From a virus: a stretch of DNA of 25,777 nucleotides. The first letter of the stretch is position 1; the number at the start of each line of letters is the position of its first letter. The translations under genes were made by a program, and so were the position numbers. Shown piece by piece: positions 4,276-25,389 of this stretch. The stretch lies in the UHGV virus genome UHGV-1341054; one strand, given 5' to 3'. Under the pieces are notes generated by a model. The model did not search any database. It was not told the origin of the DNA and saw only the letters and a program-made list of their open reading frames with translations.

Positions 4276-4351
4276 TGGTGGCCCCTACCGGACTTGAACC
4301 GATGACCGTGCGATTATGAGTCGCCAGCTCTAACCACTGAGCTAAGGGGCC
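4276..4351 (-). tRNA. tRNA with anticodon CAU, most like tRNA-Ile2 (lysidine type); Met not excluded
   Basis: Minus-strand 76 nt GGCCCCTTAGCTCAGTGGTTAGAGCTGGCGACTCATAATCGCACGGTCATCGGTTCAAGTCCGGTAGGGGCCACCA. 7-bp acceptor stem, D and T arms, anticodon loop CTCATAA, encoded CCA. Closely resembles E. coli ileX as recalled from memory. Confidence 0.85.
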
Positions 4352-4809: not shown

Positions 4810-4987
4810 CGCTCCGTTTCGTGGAGCTAACGGCGGGTGATCGGGCCGCACCAGACTGGACTTATTTCAGCGTTATGCTCATGCCAGAGAATCAAACTGT
4901 GATGGTCGGTGCTGAACTCCGACACAGGGTTGTAGCAAGCCCCGCAAAGCGCGCACTACTGTAGTTGCGGCACATCAGCCTGTGCAT

Positions 4988-5088
4988 TCACCACAATGTT
5001 GAGAACACTGGTTGTCACGCTGCAACGCAACATTTATTCGTAAATTGGGATATGACCCCGTTACGACAGTGTTCTCAACGTTGTAGTG
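4988..5088. repeat. Long hairpin E3, 14-bp perfect core stem with CACAA/TTGTG-type base
   Basis: TGTTGAGAACACTG (4997-5010) pairs with CAGTGTTCTCAACG (5067-5080); the flanking CACCACAA and TTGTAGTG extend the stem imperfectly; 56-nt loop. Confidence 0.35.
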
Positions 5089-5224
5089 CCGGTTACGGTT
5101 CCGGCCAGGTCTCTTCCTCAACGGGGTGTTCTCCATACGGGCTACCGTTTATTGGTCGTTCCTGCGGTTTATGTTGTGAAGCCAGATGCTTATCTTCTGG
5201 TTGCTTCTAAGAGCTGCACTTCAT

Positions 5225-5311
5225 CACAACGGTAAGGGTACTTCGTAGGGATTCGAACCCTCTGCCAAGCACGGCGATCTCCGACGTCGCAAAATACCCT
5301 TACCTGTTGTG
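5225..5311 (-). ncRNA. tRNA-like fragment (T-arm mimic) enclosed by conserved-arm hairpin E4, directly 3' of tRNA-Thr
   Basis: Arms CACAACGGTAAGGGTA (5225-5240) and TACCCTTACCTGTTGTG (5295-5311). Interior contains GGGTTCGAATCCC (T-stem-loop with TTCGAAT) but no matching D or anticodon arms and no CCA. Right arm ends 1 nt from the tRNA-Thr 3' end. Confidence 0.35.
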
Positions 5312-5312
5312 T

Positions 5313-5388
5313 TGGGGCCGATTAACGGACTCGAACCGCTGACATCCTGCTTACAAGGCAGGCGCTCTACCAACTGAGCTAAATCGGC
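5313..5388 (-). tRNA. tRNA-Thr (anticodon UGU)
   Basis: Minus-strand 76 nt GCCGATTTAGCTCAGTTGGTAGAGCGCCTGCCTTGTAAGCAGGATGTCAGCGGTTCGAGTCCGTTAATCGGCCCCA. Canonical cloverleaf, anticodon loop CTTGTAA, encoded CCA. Confidence 0.9.
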
Positions 5389-5390
5389 AC

Positions 5391-5465
5391 TGGCGATGGT
5401 GAGTGGATTCGAACCACCGACCAGTTGGTTAACAGCCAACTGCTCTACCGCTGAGCTACACCATC
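5391..5465 (-). tRNA. tRNA-Asn (anticodon GUU)
   Basis: Minus-strand 75 nt GATGGTGTAGCTCAGCGGTAGAGCAGTTGGCTGTTAACCAACTGGTCGGTGGTTCGAATCCACTCACCATCGCCA. Canonical cloverleaf, anticodon loop CTGTTAA, encoded CCA. Lies 2 nt upstream of tRNA-Thr. Confidence 0.9.
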
Positions 5466-5662
5466 AATTACCGGGTACGTCTCCGGCAAGGGCTTCCACC
5501 TTCGTATGCTTTTCGGCGCACCGCGCCCTGGCTGCAATTCGGTAACAGGGAGTGCATGACCCTGGCTTCCGGCGTAGTTAGCGCCTTCCGCATGACGGGA
5601 TATACCCGCTTAGGTTTGGAACTGTCCAAATGCTGTTAAGCACCGGCTGCTGCGCGAGTTGC

Positions 5663-5745
5663 CACAACAGATAAGGACGCTGCCAAGAAAGACCTGACCC
5701 TTCTCATTCATCTGGTTAATCACACCAGCGCCCTTACCTGTTATG
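5663..5745. repeat. Conserved-arm hairpin E5 (CACAACAGATAAGGACGC ... GCGCCCTTACCTGTTATG)
   Basis: Left arm 5663-5680, right arm 5728-5745, 15 of 18 complementary; lies upstream (in minus sense) of the tRNA-Asn/Thr pair. Confidence 0.4.
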
Positions 5746-5926
5746 ACTCCCCGTTCTTTAATACACAGACGGGAAAACTCTGCGGTCGATTTCTTGACGG
5801 GGGGCGACTCATACCCCGTGGCGTCAGGCTTCTTAGGCCGCTACCATCATCAGATCATCGTTTGCATTTACTTTAATGGTCGGTTTCTAAACCGCCGCAA
5901 AGTCGCTAACCATGACGAAAACACTG

Positions 5927-5951
5927 AAAAAAAGCCCACCCGGAGATGGGC
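5927..5951 (-). terminator. Candidate rho-independent terminator (minus strand)
   Basis: In minus sense: GCCCA-TCTCCGGG-TGGGC followed by TTTTTTT (A-run 5927-5933 on the plus strand). Confidence 0.45.
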
Positions 5952-5970
5952 AAATACGCTACATCTCACA

Positions 5971-6049
5971 CAAGAAAGAAGCCGACTGCCTGAGCTGGAT
6001 CCACTTTCAAATGCCCGCAGAAAGGGATCACAAGTCGGCTTCTTTCTTG
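5971..6049 (-). ncRNA. Large hairpin (17-bp perfect stem plus inner inverted repeat), candidate structured sRNA ending at the 5927-5951 terminator
   Basis: CAAGAAAGAAGCCGACT (5971-5987) pairs perfectly with AGTCGGCTTCTTTCTTG (6033-6049). Inner arms GATCCACTTTC and GAAAGGGATC. The overlapping ORFs on both strands look spurious. Confidence 0.3.
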
Positions 6050-6265
6050 ATGCGGCACTCTCTCCGCCCGTCACCGCTCTGTCTCGGTTGTCGCGTTTGC
6101 CACGCCAGCCGTAACGAGGTTTAAAGTCTTTGCACGTTTCCATCACTCGACTGCCGTCTGTGGCTGTTCGTTGCGGCGGGGGTGCCTCCCCCTGGGGATA
6201 TCCCCGGCCTTACCCCATTCTTTCAAGACACAATGCAAGGCCACATCCGCATAGGTGCATTACCG

Positions 6266-6331
6266 CAACATTAAGGAGACTCAGGGCAAAAGATACTCGC
6301 CACAAAAAATCCCTATGCCTCCTTAATGTTG
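6266..6331. repeat. Hairpin with 13-bp perfect stem (CAACATTAAGGAG ... CTCCTTAATGTTG)
   Basis: Perfect reverse-complement arms at 6266-6278 and 6319-6331 with a 40-nt loop; no adjacent T-run. Confidence 0.35.
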
Positions 6332-6552
6332 AGGATGTGCATTGATGATGACCCGAAGCAGCCTGGCCCACTAAGCACGTTTCTCTGCCAGATCATCATC
6401 ACTGCACGCCCTGAATGCATTGCCATCCGTGGCGTTGAGGTCGCTTGTTGTTTACTCCGCAAAATGCACTTTTGGAGAACACTTTATGGAGCATCATCAG
6501 TTCCTGCTGACCTGTTCTTGCCATTTGCACGGGCGCCTGGCTTACGCATTAT

Positions 6553-6579
6553 ATTTCTAACATTTTCATTTGTTAGAAG
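6553..6579. promoter_or_regulatory. Inverted pair of the recurring motif (ATTTCTAACA ... TGTTAGAAG)
   Basis: TTCTAACA and TGTTAGAA form an 8-bp inverted repeat with an 8-bp spacer. In minus sense the sequence reads ATGTTAGAAATATAATG, which contains a TATAAT -10-like hexamer. Confidence 0.35.
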
Positions 6580-6714
6580 TGCTGGTGGGTTAAGATTTGG
6601 CGAAAAAGAGTGACGCTCTACCTGCTGCAAGCCGTGTTGAGATATCACCCCACCAGCACGAAAAATTTTAGGACAACCACACAAAACAATCAATGTGTTA
6701 TTTTGTTCAACTCA

Positions 6715-6726
6715 AATTTCTAACAC
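6715..6726. promoter_or_regulatory. Recurring motif copy AATTTCTAACAC
   Basis: Exact copy of the 12-mer also found at 9140-9151; lies just downstream of the 6743 gene stop at the head of the noncoding region. Confidence 0.3.
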
Positions 6727-6742
6727 ATTAATTTAATGCCAA

Positions 6743-8063
6743 TCATCTCCCGTACAAATCTTCAACACCGCCGTTCTTTTTATCCCACTCATTCGCCCAT
6801 ACCCGACAGGAATCAATGATTTCCTGTCGGCAGTCGCCCTGCATGAATGGCAACTCGTCATGAAAGTTGCTTGGGATGCAGGCCACACTGAAAACAGTAT
6901 CAAATCCGGCGTCCTTGATGCCTTCCATCGTCTCAGGGCGCATTTTTAACTCGTCAACCGGGGCATCTTTGGCATCCATAATGCGTCGATGCAAGCGAGG
7001 ATAATCCTCTTCAAGGTACGCCATAATCTTATTGTGAAGGCATTCGTCGATGTCGTTGTTCCAGTCTTTGGCAAACTCAGGCATTCGGTAATAAAGTGGC
7101 GTTCCCCAAACTGACGGGATCACATCCATTGTCAGCAAACGGTTTGTTCTAATTTGCAGGTGATAGTTAGCAGTAAGTAATGATTCTCCCCGCTGTCCGG
7201 TTTCCATCTCAAGAAAGTCGTTTTTTTCCGCATGAATAAAATCTGNNNNNNNNNNGGCCATGTGGGTATTCGTGAATATAAGCAACCGCATCCCTGCCAT
7301 CGTACATGAGCGGGAAAGATTCCGGGCGTTCTGGCATACCGCAGGCGCGATTCAGATCATACCCAAGCTGAGAACATTCACTCTTTAACTTCTCGATGAT
7401 AGCCTGAGCAGAAGCAAGTTTCTTACGCAGGCTTACGTTCTCGCCCTGGTATTTAATGCTCACTTTGTTCAGTTCGGATACACGCTCTTTAAGTTCGCGG
7501 CGTTCTCTTTTAAGGGAACGGTTATCTCTCTCGCTGTCATCCAGGCGTTTTGCCAGGCTGGACGGGAAGTCTTTCTTATAGCGCCGTAAATCTGACTCTG
7601 CCGCTGCGCGTAGCGTGTTGGCCTGCTGGAGACTGGCTTCAAGTGTACCGATCTCTCTTTTATGCTGTTCTGCATACTCAGTAATGATTTCACCCAGCGT
7701 CTCCGCCGTGGCGCTCATACCGGTAGCATGGGAAAAACTGATCAGGCTGGCGTTAACGACACGCTGAAATTCTTCGAACTGATCAACCAGGGCGTTGTAG
7801 TCTGATGCACCCGCATCCAGTAGCTGATTGATGTCATTTACAAGGTTATCTGCTGTGGCAAGAGTGCTTTCAAAAAGGCGTTTTGACAGGTCATCTCCGG
7901 CAGTCCGCTTTTGTAACAACTGTATCTGGCTGCGGAGTGTATCGATATCCGCAGAAATGATGTCTTCNNNNNNNNNNATCAAGGACAAGGCAGAGTCAAT
8001 GGGTTGGAAAGAAGGTCAGAAATGATGTCTTCGGTGGAGGAGGTTACTGCTTGCTGACTCATG
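6743..8063 (-). CDS. Hypothetical protein, about 440 aa, N-terminal coiled-coil region; reading frame broken by two 10-N gaps
   Basis: ORF-track pieces 7209..7988 and 6743..7300 are protein-like only on opposite sides of the N run at 7246-7255, consistent with one gene and an arbitrary gap length. The likely true start is ATG at 8063 (SD AAGGA): MSQQAVTSSTEDIIS, whose EDIIS is encoded by a 16-mer duplicated either side of the N run at 7968-7977. Confidence 0.5.
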
Positions 8064-8089: not shown

Positions 8090-8101
8090 ATTTTCTAACA
8101 T
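8090..8101. promoter_or_regulatory. Recurring motif copy (ATTTTCTAACAT) about 30 nt upstream of the 8063 start
   Basis: Minus sense reads ATGTTAGAAAAT, between the upstream terminator (8143-8164) and the ATG at 8063; a TGnTAnAAA extended -10-like arrangement is possible. Confidence 0.35.
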
Positions 8102-8693: not shown

Positions 8694-9167
8694 TTAAGTT
8701 AGATCAACATATTCCGTGATAGCTTTGATGGCTTCATCGGCACTTCGCGCCTCAAAGCAGTAGTAACCTGCTTCTGTGAGGCGTGTCATCCAGACGATTT
8801 GTTCGGGAGTTAGACGATTATTCCCTTGCTTCATCTCGATGCGCATTCCGTGATAACCGCCACGCGCAAGATCAATCGAAAGGTCTGGATAACCTTTCTT
8901 TTGCCCCTCAGCGACCATTTTGATAGCTGTCCTTATTCCACGAAGTCCTCCGTTCGGGGTGGCGTGTGTATGTTCGTACACATATCGCATGTGGCGATAG
9001 AGCCAATCCAGAACGCGAACCTGCTCGTAGTGTTCATGGTTCCCTTTGATTAGTTCGGGGTTATTTGCAAGCTCTAGAAGAGCGGCTGCGTGCAGGGTTT
9101 TTGCTTCAAATCCGTAATGGCGTCTTTTTGTTCGATTGTAATTTCTAACACATGTTATAGCTTTCAT
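8694..9167 (-). CDS. VRR-NUC domain nuclease (PD-(D/E)xK superfamily), 157 aa
   Basis: Motifs EHYEQVRVLDWL ... GYPDLSIDLARGGYHGMRIEMKQG ... LTPEQIVWMTRL match the VRR-NUC pattern (E...Q...WL, PDL, hExK). The N-terminal ~44 aa extension and exact start are uncertain; the AATTTCTAACAC motif lies inside codons 5-10. Confidence 0.7.
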   Translation of the reverse strand: MKAITCVRNYNRTKRRHYGFEAKTLHAAALLELANNPELIKGNHEHYEQVRVLDWLYRHMRYVYEHTHATPNGGLRGIRTAIKMVAEGQKKGYPDLSIDLARGGYHGMRIEMKQGNNRLTPEQIVWMTRLTEAGYYCFEARSADEAIKAITEYVDLT

Positions 9168-18815: not shown

Positions 18816-18848
18816 ACAGTGTATATTAATACACTGTGTTAGAAATTT
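18816..18848. promoter_or_regulatory. Perfect 22-bp palindrome abutting a copy of the recurring motif (GTGTTAGAAATTT), candidate operator or origin-proximal site
   Basis: ACAGTGTAT-ATTA-ATACACTGT (9-bp arms, 18816-18837), immediately followed by GTGTTAGAAATTT (18836-18848), upstream of the Rep-like gene. Confidence 0.4.
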
Positions 18849-23452: not shown

Positions 23453-25389
23453 TAAGCACCTCCCTGCTGAATTTCAGCCAGAATATTGATCAGGTAGTCA
23501 ACGGCTGCACCTACAGTTGCTTCGTTCTCGTCATATCGACCAGCACTGATAAGAGCGTTTGCAGCTTCCTGCACATGATCAAGTTCAGCACTTATGACCG
23601 TCAGATCGCGGGATGTGAACTGCTCCGGAACGGATTTCAGGTACTCAAGCGCTTTATCTGCTTCCTGGTCAGCTTCGCTTGCTGATTCACCCGCTTCTTC
23701 TGGCTCCGGCTCCTGTTCTGGTGCTGGTTGCGATTCTCGCTCAACTACAGGATCTGTTTTTACTTCGCTTGAATGATTTTGAAGGGCGTTATACACGTCC
23801 ATAATGAAAAGGTTCTCCCCATCACCAAGTGGATATGCCACGTTCGGGAACGCTTTGCGGAAAAGAATTTTAACTTGCGCCTTGAATGTTTTCAGGTCTC
23901 TTCCAAACAGATCTACATAGCCATCAATATGTTTTACCATGCTGGACGCAACCAGCTCGTTCGCCATCCCCTTCAGTTCATCGTCATCAGGCAGATAGCG
24001 TAATTCATACTGGCTGACTTCTTTATCTGTCAGTTTTCGGTCATAAGTAATTATCCCGTGACGAGCATATTCGTAATACGGATCCGCCTGGTCAGGACGG
24101 TCAAGTACGCCTTTATTTCCTTCCGGTACCGCACCTACAGCCGCCGGACGGGATTGCAGTGCATAGCGATATTTACCTACATCCTGAGTCTCTGGCTGTG
24201 ATACTGATTGCGGCCCAGGTTGTGGTTCTGGATCTGGTTGTAGTTCCGGCTGAACGGATGGCTCTGGCTGGCCTGGCAACACATCCACTTTGTATTGTTC
24301 AGCTTTATGTTCGCGATAGGCTTTCAGTAGTTTTGTTGCGGCATCAGCCTTGCTCTGACCATTAACGTCGCTTGCTTTAATGCTGTAGTTGCCTTCTGGT
24401 GCTGCTATGGTGACATAATTATCAGCACCAGTGCTGACGTACATAACCTCGGCTCCATTATCAAGCGTCGCTCGACCTTCGGTAGAAAGATTGCTTTTCA
24501 CCCGGCGCAACTGGTCGTTGAACGCTCGTTCCGGTTTCACCTTTTCTTTTGCTGATTTAAGTTGATCACGTTTGGCCTGCAACTGTGCATTAAGTGCTTT
24601 CTGGTCATCTAATTTTTTTTGCAGTTCGACAAGGCTTTCTCGCTTTTCAGCTAAACCTTGTTGCGCTGTATCTACCTGGCCAATCAATACAGAACGCTCT
24701 TCTGCCAATTTGTCGGCTTCATTTAGATAACCGTCAATATCTGCCTTCATTTTGTCCTGACGGGCTTTAGCTTTTTTGAACTTTTCACTATTGCGCTCAA
24801 TCAGGTTCGATAGCGCCTGGCATACCTGACTCAATGAAACATCTCGTCCGCCGATGGGGGCTACTACATGAGTTACATTGCGTTTATTAAGCAGGAACTG
24901 GAAAGCCACCAGTTCATCGCTGCTTTTAATCTTTGCACTGTCTGCCGTGGGGGAATGGAAGATAATGCTGGTGGTCTGACCGTCAGTAAGCGGGATAAGT
25001 GCCGTTAATACCGGAATGTTTGCTACCCGACGAACACGACCGATTATCGCTCCACCAATGCTGTTTCGCCCATTCTCATCTTCGCCAACTTCATCAGTAC
25101 CGGCAGATATATTTGTACCGTTGAGGCCTCGGTTTAGTGAGCGGACAAATGCCCGCATGGTCTGCGCAAGCCTGATCCTCGTCGTTGTGATGGATTCAAA
25201 CATCGCCTCATCGCTTTCAACGAGAATTTCATTACCCATATAGGCGAGTTCGATGTCTTCAAGCGTAGCGGCTTCGAGGAGAAGGTCATCATCAGTAAGC
25301 TCTTCACGACTCCATCTTCCTGGGACGTACCCCGTCAACGTGTCAGCAAAGGTGGACTGAATATTTATACGAATAGGATTTTTAATCAT
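23452..25389 (-). CDS. Hypothetical protein, 645 aa, with central coiled coil and P/E/Q-rich linkers
   Basis: Long ORF; coiled-coil stretch around KLAEERSVLIGQ...LQAKRDQLKS; linkers PGQPEPSVQPELQPDPEPQPGPQ and ESQPAPEQEPEPEE; start overlaps the stop of the upstream gene (ATGA). Confidence 0.65.
   Translation of the reverse strand: MIKNPIRINIQSTFADTLTGYVPGRWSREELTDDDLLLEAATLEDIELAYMGNEILVESDEAMFESITTTRIRLAQTMRAFVRSLNRGLNGTNISAGTDEVGEDENGRNSIGGAIIGRVRRVANIPVLTALIPLTDGQTTSIIFHSPTADSAKIKSSDELVAFQFLLNKRNVTHVVAPIGGRDVSLSQVCQALSNLIERNSEKFKKAKARQDKMKADIDGYLNEADKLAEERSVLIGQVDTAQQGLAEKRESLVELQKKLDDQKALNAQLQAKRDQLKSAKEKVKPERAFNDQLRRVKSNLSTEGRATLDNGAEVMYVSTGADNYVTIAAPEGNYSIKASDVNGQSKADAATKLLKAYREHKAEQYKVDVLPGQPEPSVQPELQPDPEPQPGPQSVSQPETQDVGKYRYALQSRPAAVGAVPEGNKGVLDRPDQADPYYEYARHGIITYDRKLTDKEVSQYELRYLPDDDELKGMANELVASSMVKHIDGYVDLFGRDLKTFKAQVKILFRKAFPNVAYPLGDGENLFIMDVYNALQNHSSEVKTDPVVERESQPAPEQEPEPEEAGESASEADQEADKALEYLKSVPEQFTSRDLTVISAELDHVQEAANALISAGRYDENEATVGAAVDYLINILAEIQQGGA

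Follow-up and report, generated by a model that had tools for sequence, protein, structure and literature searches.

A modular structured leader RNA upstream of the tRNA genes in a D6-like relative of phage P1

What is encoded at positions 5927-6331 of the virus genome UHGV-1341054? The stretch contains two long perfect hairpins and a terminator-like element within a region poor in protein genes. We analysed it as part of a longer stretch of DNA of 25,777 nucleotides (nt), referred to here as the window. An earlier note, made from the sequence alone, interpreted these features as candidate small RNA (sRNA) genes co-transcribed with the nearby tRNA genes, and proposed stem covariation among relatives and an Rfam/Infernal scan as checks. 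Our sequence and synteny comparisons indicate that 5927-6331 is part of a ~620-nt untranslated leader read from the minus strand. It introduces an early operon of a D6-type plasmid prophage and corresponds to the leader of the ban/tRNA operon that C1 represses in phage P1. The ~2 kb that separate the putatively repressor-controlled promoter from the operon's first protein gene are blank in annotation, yet they carry dense conserved RNA structures.

Position of the leader in the tRNA operon

Positions 5404-6349 of the window are 92% identical to Escherichia phage D6, and positions 5404-5954 share ~88% identity with P1, P7 and a large number of P1-like phages and plasmids. The latter match stops at the terminator, which we call E. 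Judged by these identities, the window is a D6-like member of the P1 family, and P1-type plasmid prophages occur in about one tenth of complete E. coli genomes. ARAGORN and Rfam place tRNA-Asn (5391-5465), tRNA-Thr (5313-5388) and a Met/Ile2-type tRNA (4276-4351) on the minus strand; the first two belong to the same transcription unit as the leader. Along the tRNA strand of P1, the C1-controlled promoter Pban and its bivalent operator Op72 come first, followed by the 'dicF-like region', a gene-free ~450 nt, trnA(Asn), trnT, tciABC, trnI and ban. The synteny with this operon is the reason why we read the region on the minus strand, as the leader of a D6-type ban operon. The P1 leader (NC_005856, 'dicF-like region' at 68791-68892) and that of the window share their position in the operon, a C1-type operator with a promoter, a structured untranslated make-up and an identical terminator E, which is followed by a conserved RNA of ~450 nt, trnA(Asn) and trnT; both leaders are on the tRNA strand. 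The two differ in that the window lacks the structured module of P1 (module D below) and contains instead ~450 nt of modules named H3, H2, A, B and C, none of which is present in P1. Their operator words also differ, being of the TGTTAGAA type in the window and ATTGCTCTAATAAATTT in P1, as expected for a heteroimmune phage. We found no paper that deals with sRNAs in the ban leader of P1 or with a transfer-messenger RNA (tmRNA)-like RNA in this phage, in a search that did not extend to the P1 genome paper and the 1994 dicF paper. We note that the record of phage D6 (NC_050154, 3358-4063) annotates its three tRNA genes opposite to the strand given by ARAGORN; the record probably has the strand wrong.

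We presume that the leader starts at a sigma-70-like promoter on the minus strand (CTAACA-17-TATAAT, 6576-6548), which has 10 of 12 consensus matches and lies at the position of P1 Pban. It is overlapped by an operator-like inverted pair of TGTTAGAA (6551-6582), with half-sites at 6555-6562 (minus strand) and 6571-6578 (plus strand). This 8-mer occurs eight times in the window, compared with 0.75 copies expected, and is similar to the core of the P1 C1 operator (ATTT.TTAGA). On the basis of position and of the analogy with Op72, we take the TGTTAGAA sites as D6-type C1 operators, and the inverted pair, analogous to P1 Op72ab, as a likely binding site of the D6-type C1 repressor. A weaker promoter-like site on the minus strand (TTGATT-17-TAAAAT, 6693-6665) is accompanied by a third operator-like half-site (6714-6728, with the word at 6718-6725). 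Among relatives, the promoter/operator block is kept while the flanks diverge by ~25%, and the third half-site is kept as well. A second inverted pair is located at 2749/2771 (2749-2778), just upstream of an lpa homologue. Other copies are found at 8093-8100, 9143-9150 and 18837-18844, and the spread copies probably represent the D6-type C1 operator set.

No other sigma-70-like promoter was found on the minus strand between 6548 and tRNA-Asn, and no promoter-like site was found on the plus strand in 5900-6400. Together with the synteny of the P1 ban operon, the lack of another promoter before tRNA-Asn supports the proposed co-transcription with the tRNAs. The proposal of sRNA genes holds in part: the minus-sense RNA structures are real and conserved, but they have no promoters of their own and are modules of one leader of ~620 nt that starts at ~6548-6576 and is reshuffled among relatives. 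As far as sequence can tell, the leader is thus a non-coding structured RNA within the tRNA transcription unit, and its hairpins are leader modules rather than independent sRNA genes.

Open reading frames (ORFs) of 53-123 amino acids (aa) are present on both strands of the region, and the earlier note regarded them as spurious. Our comparisons agree with this. Ten ORFs or peptides of the region gave no match to Pfam or NCBIfam. Comparison by tblastn and among variants showed that every long ORF is cut, interrupted or missing in some class and that none is intact in all. Of 576 E. coli records with the match, almost all were left without any annotation here by the pipeline PGAP, and a few records call 'hypothetical proteins'. 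By these comparisons the leader region is non-coding.

Modules of the leader and their exchange among relatives

The whole 621-nt leader folds with a z-score of -6.2 relative to shuffled sequence. In the sense of transcription, the leader consists of H3 (6415-6329), H2 (6331-6266), a near-invariant stretch with a 31-codon ORF, A (6209-6175), B (6172-6050), C (6049-5971), a 19-nt linker and E. The two perfect stems of 17 and 13 bp and the GC-stem/U7 terminator have precisely the coordinates given in the earlier note. Minus-sense folds are 5-7 kcal/mol more stable than the plus-sense ones.

Hairpin C (5971-6049, minus strand) is branched: its 17-bp lower stem leads to an internal loop that holds a 2-bp side stem, and the 10-bp upper stem beyond it is capped by a conserved apical loop, UGCGGGYNUUNG. 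Its outer arms, 5971-5987 and 6033-6049, pair without a mismatch across a gap of 45 nt, and the nested inner stem, also described in the earlier note, is predicted by folding. The minus-sense RNA of 5965-6055 has a folding energy of -45.8 kcal/mol, compared with -24.5 +/- 3.1 kcal/mol for shuffled sequences (z = -6.9, none of 200 as good), and the plus sense reaches -41.0 kcal/mol (z = -5.9). The structure is further supported by covariation. Over 31 pairs in 13 variants, 95.5% of cells are paired, compared with 88.1 +/- 0.8% in column shuffles and at most 50% in slid registers. Eight pairs are changed on both sides, for example GAAAGA/UCUUUC versus CAUACA/UGUAUG in the lower stem and GAUCC/GGAUC versus GAUUC/GAAUC in the upper stem. 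Some variant pairs are U·G or G·U and would be A·C mismatches in the plus sense. These G·U pairs and the lower free energy favor the minus-sense RNA, and the compensatory changes are of the kind for which the earlier note proposed to look. A possible partner for the apical loop was also considered. The 12-mer CAAATGCCCGCA of the loop region recurs exactly at 25146-25157 on the plus strand, within a gene of 645 aa, in the same orientation, so that it is not complementary in minus-sense RNA, and without extended similarity; this recurrence is probably due to chance.

Hairpin C is followed by the linker UGUGAGAUGUAGCGUAUUU (5952-5970, minus strand), which is 19 nt long, single-stranded, partly AU-rich and variable in relatives. 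Its position is equivalent to that of the body of the sRNA DicF. Terminator E (5927-5951, minus strand) consists of GCCCAUCUCCGGGUGGGC and U7, with a stem of seven pairs (5951-5934, five of them G-C), a tetraloop and the T7 run at 5933-5927. It folds with -13.5 kcal/mol (z = -3.9). E is common to all P1- and D6-type relatives and forms the 3' end of the annotated 'dicF-like region' of P1, and the changes in its stem (G-C/G·U and U·G/C-G) keep the pairing in 16 sequences. With these properties, E has the sequence make-up of an intrinsic (Rho-independent) terminator and is predicted to act as one.

The two modules at the 5' end of the leader are hairpins as well. H3 (6329-6415, minus strand) is a long imperfect hairpin (UGAUGAUGAUC.../...GGUCAUCAUCA) of ~25-30 pairs and is the third long hairpin of the region, which was absent from the earlier note. 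H2 (6266-6331, minus strand) has perfect 13-bp arms formed by CAACATTAAGGAG (6266-6278 on the plus strand and 6319-6331 on the minus strand), which are extended to 15 + 5 pairs. Its folding energy is -33.0 kcal/mol in the minus sense (z = -5.8, none of 200 shuffles as good) and -26.0 kcal/mol in the plus sense. Both H3 and H2 are predicted in all nine variant classes despite their differing apical sequences. The class of an E. coli plasmid (L006) shows compensatory changes in H2, from A-U to G-C and from GGG/CCC to GAG/CUC. The 5' arm of H2 contains the Shine-Dalgarno (SD)-like sequence AAGGAGG, and downstream of it lies a candidate ORF of 31 codons with a TTG start, encoding the hydrophobic peptide (M)WRVSFALSLLNVAVMHLCGCGLALCLERMG (6210-6305, minus strand). 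The status of this ORF is doubtful. Its frame is open, with differing N-termini, in four variant classes and is broken in E. fergusonii (L005) and in one IMG/VR contig (L027), and a search of 5.8 billion protein clusters returned a single partial match. In L027, the 40-nt loop of H2 (equivalent to 6279-6318 of the window) is reverse-complemented between unchanged 13-bp arms, a small natural inversion. This flip keeps the hairpin and destroys the 31-codon ORF.

Module A (6175-6209, minus strand) contains two small GC hairpins, GGGGAUAUCCCC, which is the palindrome, and GGGGGAGGCACCCCC. The 12-bp palindrome listed in the earlier note, GGGGATATCCCC, is indeed present as a single copy, but at 6194-6205, 2 nt off the 6192-6203 given there. 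Alone it forms only a 4-bp GC hairpin, one of the two in module A, and the 45-nt segment around it has a z-score of -1.0, which is not significant. In E. fergusonii, the first hairpin of module A keeps its GGGG/CCCC stem with a different loop, so it is the stem and not the sequence that is kept. The 3' junction of module A, CCCCGC(C/T)GCAACG, is common to the dicF locus of prophage Qin.

Module B (6050-6172, minus strand) is a structured RNA cassette of ~120 nt that is present in some D6-like plasmids and absent from others, and it is flanked by the short repeats GCCGCAAC and GCCGCATC. Its core was found in 64 IMG/VR contigs, of which some 36 are unrelated temperate phages of ~40 kb of the Klebsiella/Enterobacter type. 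It was also found in Klebsiella phage Kp4865-1, a Pantoea plasmid, and Phytobacter and Mixta genomes. The loci compared for this module include L011, L012 and L046-L081. A genome-wide species scan for the core gave, beyond Escherichia, credible matches in Phytobacter and Mixta alone; the rest look like chance matches in GC-rich genomes. In the ~40-kb phages, module B shares the strand of a cI-like repressor gene, follows it at a distance of 430-820 nt and precedes the first early-left genes (RdgC-like, ParB-like), which places it in the PL-type leader. One of its hairpins covaries at four pairs (ACCG/CGGU, CACG/CGUG, GCCG/CGGC) and has a loop rich in purines, GAnAGr. The word CUCGUUA, which is invariant, is found ~30 nt upstream of this hairpin, and both the spacing and the boxA-like word are non-canonical. 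A 92-aa ORF across module B was rejected as a gene, as copies outside the D6 type contain an in-frame TAG.

The modules are exchanged among relatives, as a comparison of ten plasmid and phage loci and ~30 IMG/VR contigs showed. The closest relatives of the window, from Shigella dysenteriae and E. coli plasmids (99% identity elsewhere), lack module B and contain another allele of C followed by module D. The E. fergusonii leader is like that of the Shigella relatives, without B and with D. The E. coli plasmid L006 combines B, C and D, and the P1 leader contains D as its sole module. Terminator E and everything downstream are common to every relative. On this comparison, the leader is a mosaic of RNA modules swapped between relatives.

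Module D links these leaders to the Qin dicF locus. The 'dicF-like region' of P1 is homologous to a structured element of ~100 nt directly upstream of dicF in Qin, and not to DicF itself. The identity between the Qin element and module D is 92% for L006 and 78% for P1. In Qin, the element is followed by the 53-nt DicF and a terminator, and in the P1-type leaders it is followed by 20-50 variable nt and terminator E. Previous work reported that DicF is cut from a polycistronic transcript by RNase E and that its 3' end arises via termination or RNase III (PMC5069750). Module D is present in P1, L003, L005, L006 and L009, and it is absent from the window and from D6. The window has hairpin C in place of D and the 19-nt linker in place of the DicF body, and E alone is retained. 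The window locus is therefore like the Qin dicF locus in its layout, with a conserved structured module, a short variable body and an intrinsic terminator within a prophage early operon, but it differs in that neither DicF nor the module upstream of it has a homologue in the window. From these relationships, the leader is a D6-type variant of the P1 ban-operon leader and of dicF-type prophage leader RNAs, and it would work by the mechanism considered in the next section.

The Rfam/Infernal check did not recognize any leader element. At gathering thresholds, the window yielded three tRNAs and nothing else. When the thresholds were relaxed, the leader, the loci from P1, Shigella, Pantoea and Klebsiella phages, the leader of a 40-kb phage and the sequence downstream of tRNA-Thr yielded nothing beyond microRNA-type noise and weak tmRNA matches, and no Rfam family matched module B. 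A role of the locus as a CsrA sponge was rejected, because GGA motifs are not enriched either in the leader (11 versus 13.5 expected) or in the large RNA downstream of E (6 versus 9.7).

A proposed mechanism and its alternatives

The best explanation of these features is, in our view, a repressor-controlled structured leader in which E attenuates transcription and ends the leader RNA, the long hairpins are processing or stabilizing stems, and read-through feeds the downstream RNAs. We give this explanation a probability of about one half. What we infer in it is the control by a repressor, how efficiently E terminates, the cleavage by RNase III and any role in trans. Upon loss of the prophage repressor, transcription would start at the operator-covered promoter at ~6548-6576. 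The nascent RNA would fold into the autonomous modules H3, H2, A, B and C, and the polymerase would meet E ~620 nt downstream. E would stop a large share of the transcripts, and would thereby attenuate the tag-bearing RNA described below, tRNA-Asn, tRNA-Thr and the genes after them, and also set where the leader RNA ends. H3, H2 and C, with duplexes of 20-30 bp and internal loops, may be RNase III-type processing sites or stabilizing stems, and cutting there would divide the leader into pieces. Processing would leave a short RNA that ends in the terminator (hairpin C or its 3' linker, together with E) and occupies the place that DicF has in the dicBF operon of Qin. Polymerases that pass E would deliver the downstream RNAs, and the boxB-like hairpin of module B may aid this passage.

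An RNase III site takes ~20 bp or more of almost uninterrupted RNA duplex, in many cases with an internal loop. The predicted pairings of hairpin C (17 + 2 + 10), H2 (15 + 5) and H3 (~25-30) reach this length, and the three hairpins are candidate sites. The RNase III hairpins R1.1-R5 of phage T7 and those of the lambda N-leader and sib span at least about two helical turns, contain an internal loop and lie between the units of long early transcripts. Hairpin C resembles these in shape, as a long stem with an internal loop between functional units, but it has no sequence relationship to them, and its conserved apical loop is not a feature of such sites. More long hairpins are found between the downstream RNA genes, for example at 4980-5099 and as repeated AACAGGUAAGGG...CCUUACCGUUG stems, which fits with a heavily processed precursor of stable RNAs.

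Several observations weigh against the proposed mechanism. A terminator with U7 and a 7-bp GC stem in front of genes that need to be expressed calls for an explanation such as leakiness or antitermination. P1 lacks H3, H2, A, B and C yet contains E, so that the D6-specific modules are dispensable for the core function. As the H2 loop is inverted in L027, its sequence is not critical. Some of the leader may also be translated, since the 31-codon ORF, a candidate, albeit unproven, gene, is open in several variant classes. In addition, a P1vir RNA-seq preprint leaves this leader region unresolved.

Among the alternatives, an independent trans-acting sRNA of the DicF type is possible but doubtful. 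It would consist of C, the linker and E (~125 nt) or of the linker and E, would probably bind Hfq, and would pair with host mRNAs in lytic growth, for example to block division. E is the terminator of the annotated 'dicF-like region' of P1, and the segment before E varies (19-50 nt, four sequences), as would an evolving seed, with the flanking module and E conserved. Hfq-dependent sRNAs usually have a 3' module in which an AU-rich stretch precedes a GC hairpin with a U-tail, an arrangement like that of the linker and E. What speaks against this alternative is that the putative sRNA has no promoter of its own, that the window lacks module D, the sole true homologue of the dicF locus, and that the Rfam DicF model (RF00039) finds no match up to E = 10 in 5466-6760 and none up to E = 1 in the P1, L003, L011 and L012 loci. 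A duplex-energy test against the ftsZ leader (-70 to +45) had no discriminating power, since DicF itself was not separated from shuffles. We regard processive antitermination as unlikely. Module B, perhaps with C, would act in cis like lambda nut or HK022 put, allowing read-through of E and Rho resistance over the ~2 kb of RNA genes. Long untranslated operons need protection from Rho. Like the nut and put sites, module B occurs in leaders that directly follow repressor-controlled early promoters and precede terminators. It is found in the leader of the presumably repressor-controlled operon of the window, with a strong terminator immediately downstream, and in the early-left leaders downstream of cI-like genes in at least 10 different ~40-kb phages without an N-like first gene. 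The word CUCGUUA is comparable to boxA (CUCUUUA), and the 4-bp covarying hairpin has a purine loop, GAnAGr, like those of boxB (GAAGA/GACAA). The HK022 sites putL and putR comprise ~70 nt and two stem-loops (PMC9378689). However, the leaders share no similarity with the HK022 PL/put region, as comparison with the nun-PL-cI region gave chance-level short matches only, and the boxA-like word is off consensus (CGCUCUUA-like expected). No N-like protein was identified in the 40-kb phages that contain module B, and the D6-like genome was not searched for one. Module B is also dispensable in close relatives, being absent from the Shigella and E. fergusonii relatives and from P1, all of which have the same E and downstream genes.

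The other alternatives concern the small ORF, the DNA itself and the longer ORFs. A type I toxin-like membrane peptide, made only after processing because H2 sequesters the SD of the 31-codon ORF (6305-6210), is quite unlikely. The AAGGAGG in the 5' arm of H2 is invariant, and the ORF is open, hydrophobic and in frame in four classes with loops of differing sequence and length, and the L006 class has 7 nt between the SD and the TTG. Changes are almost absent from the 3' half of the ORF, but this invariance extends to all three codon positions and so points to constraint at the RNA level. Moreover, the frame is broken in E. fergusonii (L005), where 1 nt is deleted, and in L027, where the loop is inverted; the only available starts are TTG, which in the window is 12 nt away from the SD; no promoter is predicted on the antisense strand and no promoter-like site for an antitoxin is present on the plus strand in 5900-6400; and Pfam and NCBIfam give no match and the protein clusters only the one partial match. 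Elements that act as DNA, in which the inverted repeats would be cruciforms, protein-binding palindromes, single-strand initiation signals or recombination sites, are very unlikely. The arms are perfect and fold in both senses, and the module boundaries coincide with short repeats (such as those around B). The inverted H2 loop of one relative and a deletion between two AACAGGTAAGGG repeats in another show that these repeats are recombinogenic. Against an action as DNA, the compensatory changes proceed via G·U intermediates that pair in the minus-sense transcript alone, the minus-sense folds are the more stable ones, the palindrome is conserved in its stem and not in its sequence, and the position and orientation of the modules fit a transcribed leader. 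Ordinary protein genes, that is, one or more of the overlapping ORFs of 50-123 aa, are scarcely credible: the frames exist on both strands and a few have been deposited as hypothetical proteins, but they have no family, are broken in one class or another, are left blank by PGAP in nearly all records, and span the 17-bp perfect hairpins and the terminator.

The tag-bearing RNA downstream of E and other observations

Between E and tRNA-Asn, outside the region of the leader, lies a large conserved structured RNA of 457 nt (5466-5922, minus strand). It is almost invariant between P1 and D6, except for one hypervariable patch. RNAalifold predicts 135 pairs, of which 99.1% are kept, with seven compensatory and ~20 one-sided G-C/G·U changes; these counts are optimistic, as the structure was derived from the same sequences. 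A long-range helix of 17 bp closes the fold. The sole conserved ORF of this RNA (5629-5468) has mostly non-synonymous substitutions, and constraint at the RNA level is therefore the better reading. The RNA is present in P1, P7, D6 and Klebsiella plasmids of ~111 kb, always beside phage tRNA genes. It is also present in 561 of 5426 complete E. coli genomes, and neither these nor the other copies are annotated.

The large RNA contains a start-less frame of 10 codons and UAA that resembles the tag template of tmRNA (5865-5833, minus strand; GCA AAC GAU GAU CUG AUG AUG GUA GCG GCC UAA, ANDDLMMVAA*). The frame is found in all copies, with conservative amino-acid changes in the divergent ones, and its third-position changes are synonymous, such as GTA to GTT in an IncY plasmid. 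Variants include ANDDVVLMAA and ANDNVVLMAA in the Klebsiella ~111-kb plasmids and ANDDLMLMAA, ANDDAVLMAA, ANDNLMMVAA and ANDDLMMAAA in IMG/VR contigs, and the only copy that does not end in AA is ANDDLMMVAP in a metagenomic contig (L209). By this pattern, the frame is conserved as coding sequence, as would be expected of a tmRNA tag. The Rfam family tmRNA_permuted matches 5940-5833 with 24-25 bits (E = 0.014 in a 1.3-kb search), far below its gathering score of 47, and this match is due to the sequence UAAAU and the tag frame GCA...UAA. Similarities to tmRNA (SsrA) are the start-less ANDD....AA frame with UAA, the AAGUAAAU-GCAAACGA context, as in many genuine tmRNAs of IMG/VR, and the location of the tag stop codon in a small hairpin loop, as in tmRNA helix 5. 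In contrast to tmRNA, the 457-nt RNA has no tRNA-like domain and the rest of its fold is unrelated. ARAGORN found no such domain at the default, 90% and 80% thresholds (and gave nonsense at 70%), and no tmRNA-family match was found downstream. A tmRNA census of 2014 listed phage ssrA only in mycobacteriophages and Bacillus phage G, with none in enterobacterial phages or plasmids (PMC4131195).

These features raise the tentative possibility that the leader is the control and processing region of an undescribed phage island of stable RNAs, the first product of which would be a ~457-nt RNA that derives from or mimics the messenger part of tmRNA. If so, phages of the P1 family may interfere with or re-programme ribosome rescue (trans-translation), or protein tagging and degradation, in lytic growth, and the leader would gate this expression. 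A functional tag-bearing RNA would be a new link between temperate phages and ribosome rescue. The array as a whole comprises exchangeable leader modules that also occur in lambdoid prophages (the Qin dicF locus and the early-left leaders of Klebsiella phages), a common terminator, the tag-frame RNA and the tRNAs. The leader offers a concrete, testable model of how a phage may gate and process a stable-RNA operon. Hairpin C and module B are new RNA motifs supported by covariation and are candidates for RNA family databases.

Further observations were made on the RNA genes and their surroundings. In an E. coli IncY plasmid (L097, NZ_CP020936, 171-1501), an insertion encoding a TnpB-family RNA-guided endonuclease interrupts the large RNA a little upstream of the tag frame, at the junction of GGTTTAG and AAACTGACC. 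The sequence AACAGGUAAGGG, which starts long hairpins closed by CCUUACCGUUG, occurs on the minus strand inside the large RNA (~5730-5745) and after tRNA-Thr (~5210-5300). The second of these hairpins encloses the T-arm-like sequence GGGUUCGAAUCCC, and in one IMG/VR contig (L139) a deletion between the two AACAGGUAAGGG repeats removes both tRNAs. The hairpin at 4980-5099, between tRNA-Thr and the Met/Ile2-type tRNA, is long and near-perfect (ACAAUGUUGAGAACACUG ... CAGUGUUCUCAACGUUGU). In P1, the interval 2212-2331 of locus L001 (minus strand), between tciA and upl, gives a sub-threshold match to the Rfam sRNA family STnc100 (33 bits, E = 5.5e-4, gathering score 47). Upstream of the leader, a pmgS-like gene is split into the overlapping ORFs 6743-7300 and 7209-7988 by two runs of 10 N (7246-7255 and 7968-7977), a data artefact and not a frameshift. 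Finally, a small covarying hairpin with a T-loop-like loop (UGGAAGC/UGGAAUC) is shared by the region of the P1/D6 tRNAs (~5485-5500 in the window), the end of the Kp4865-type leader (L056, 6733-6750) and the tRNA cluster of N4-like phages (L082, ~1543-1561), and the copy at the N4 locus precedes an unannotated tRNA-like sequence.

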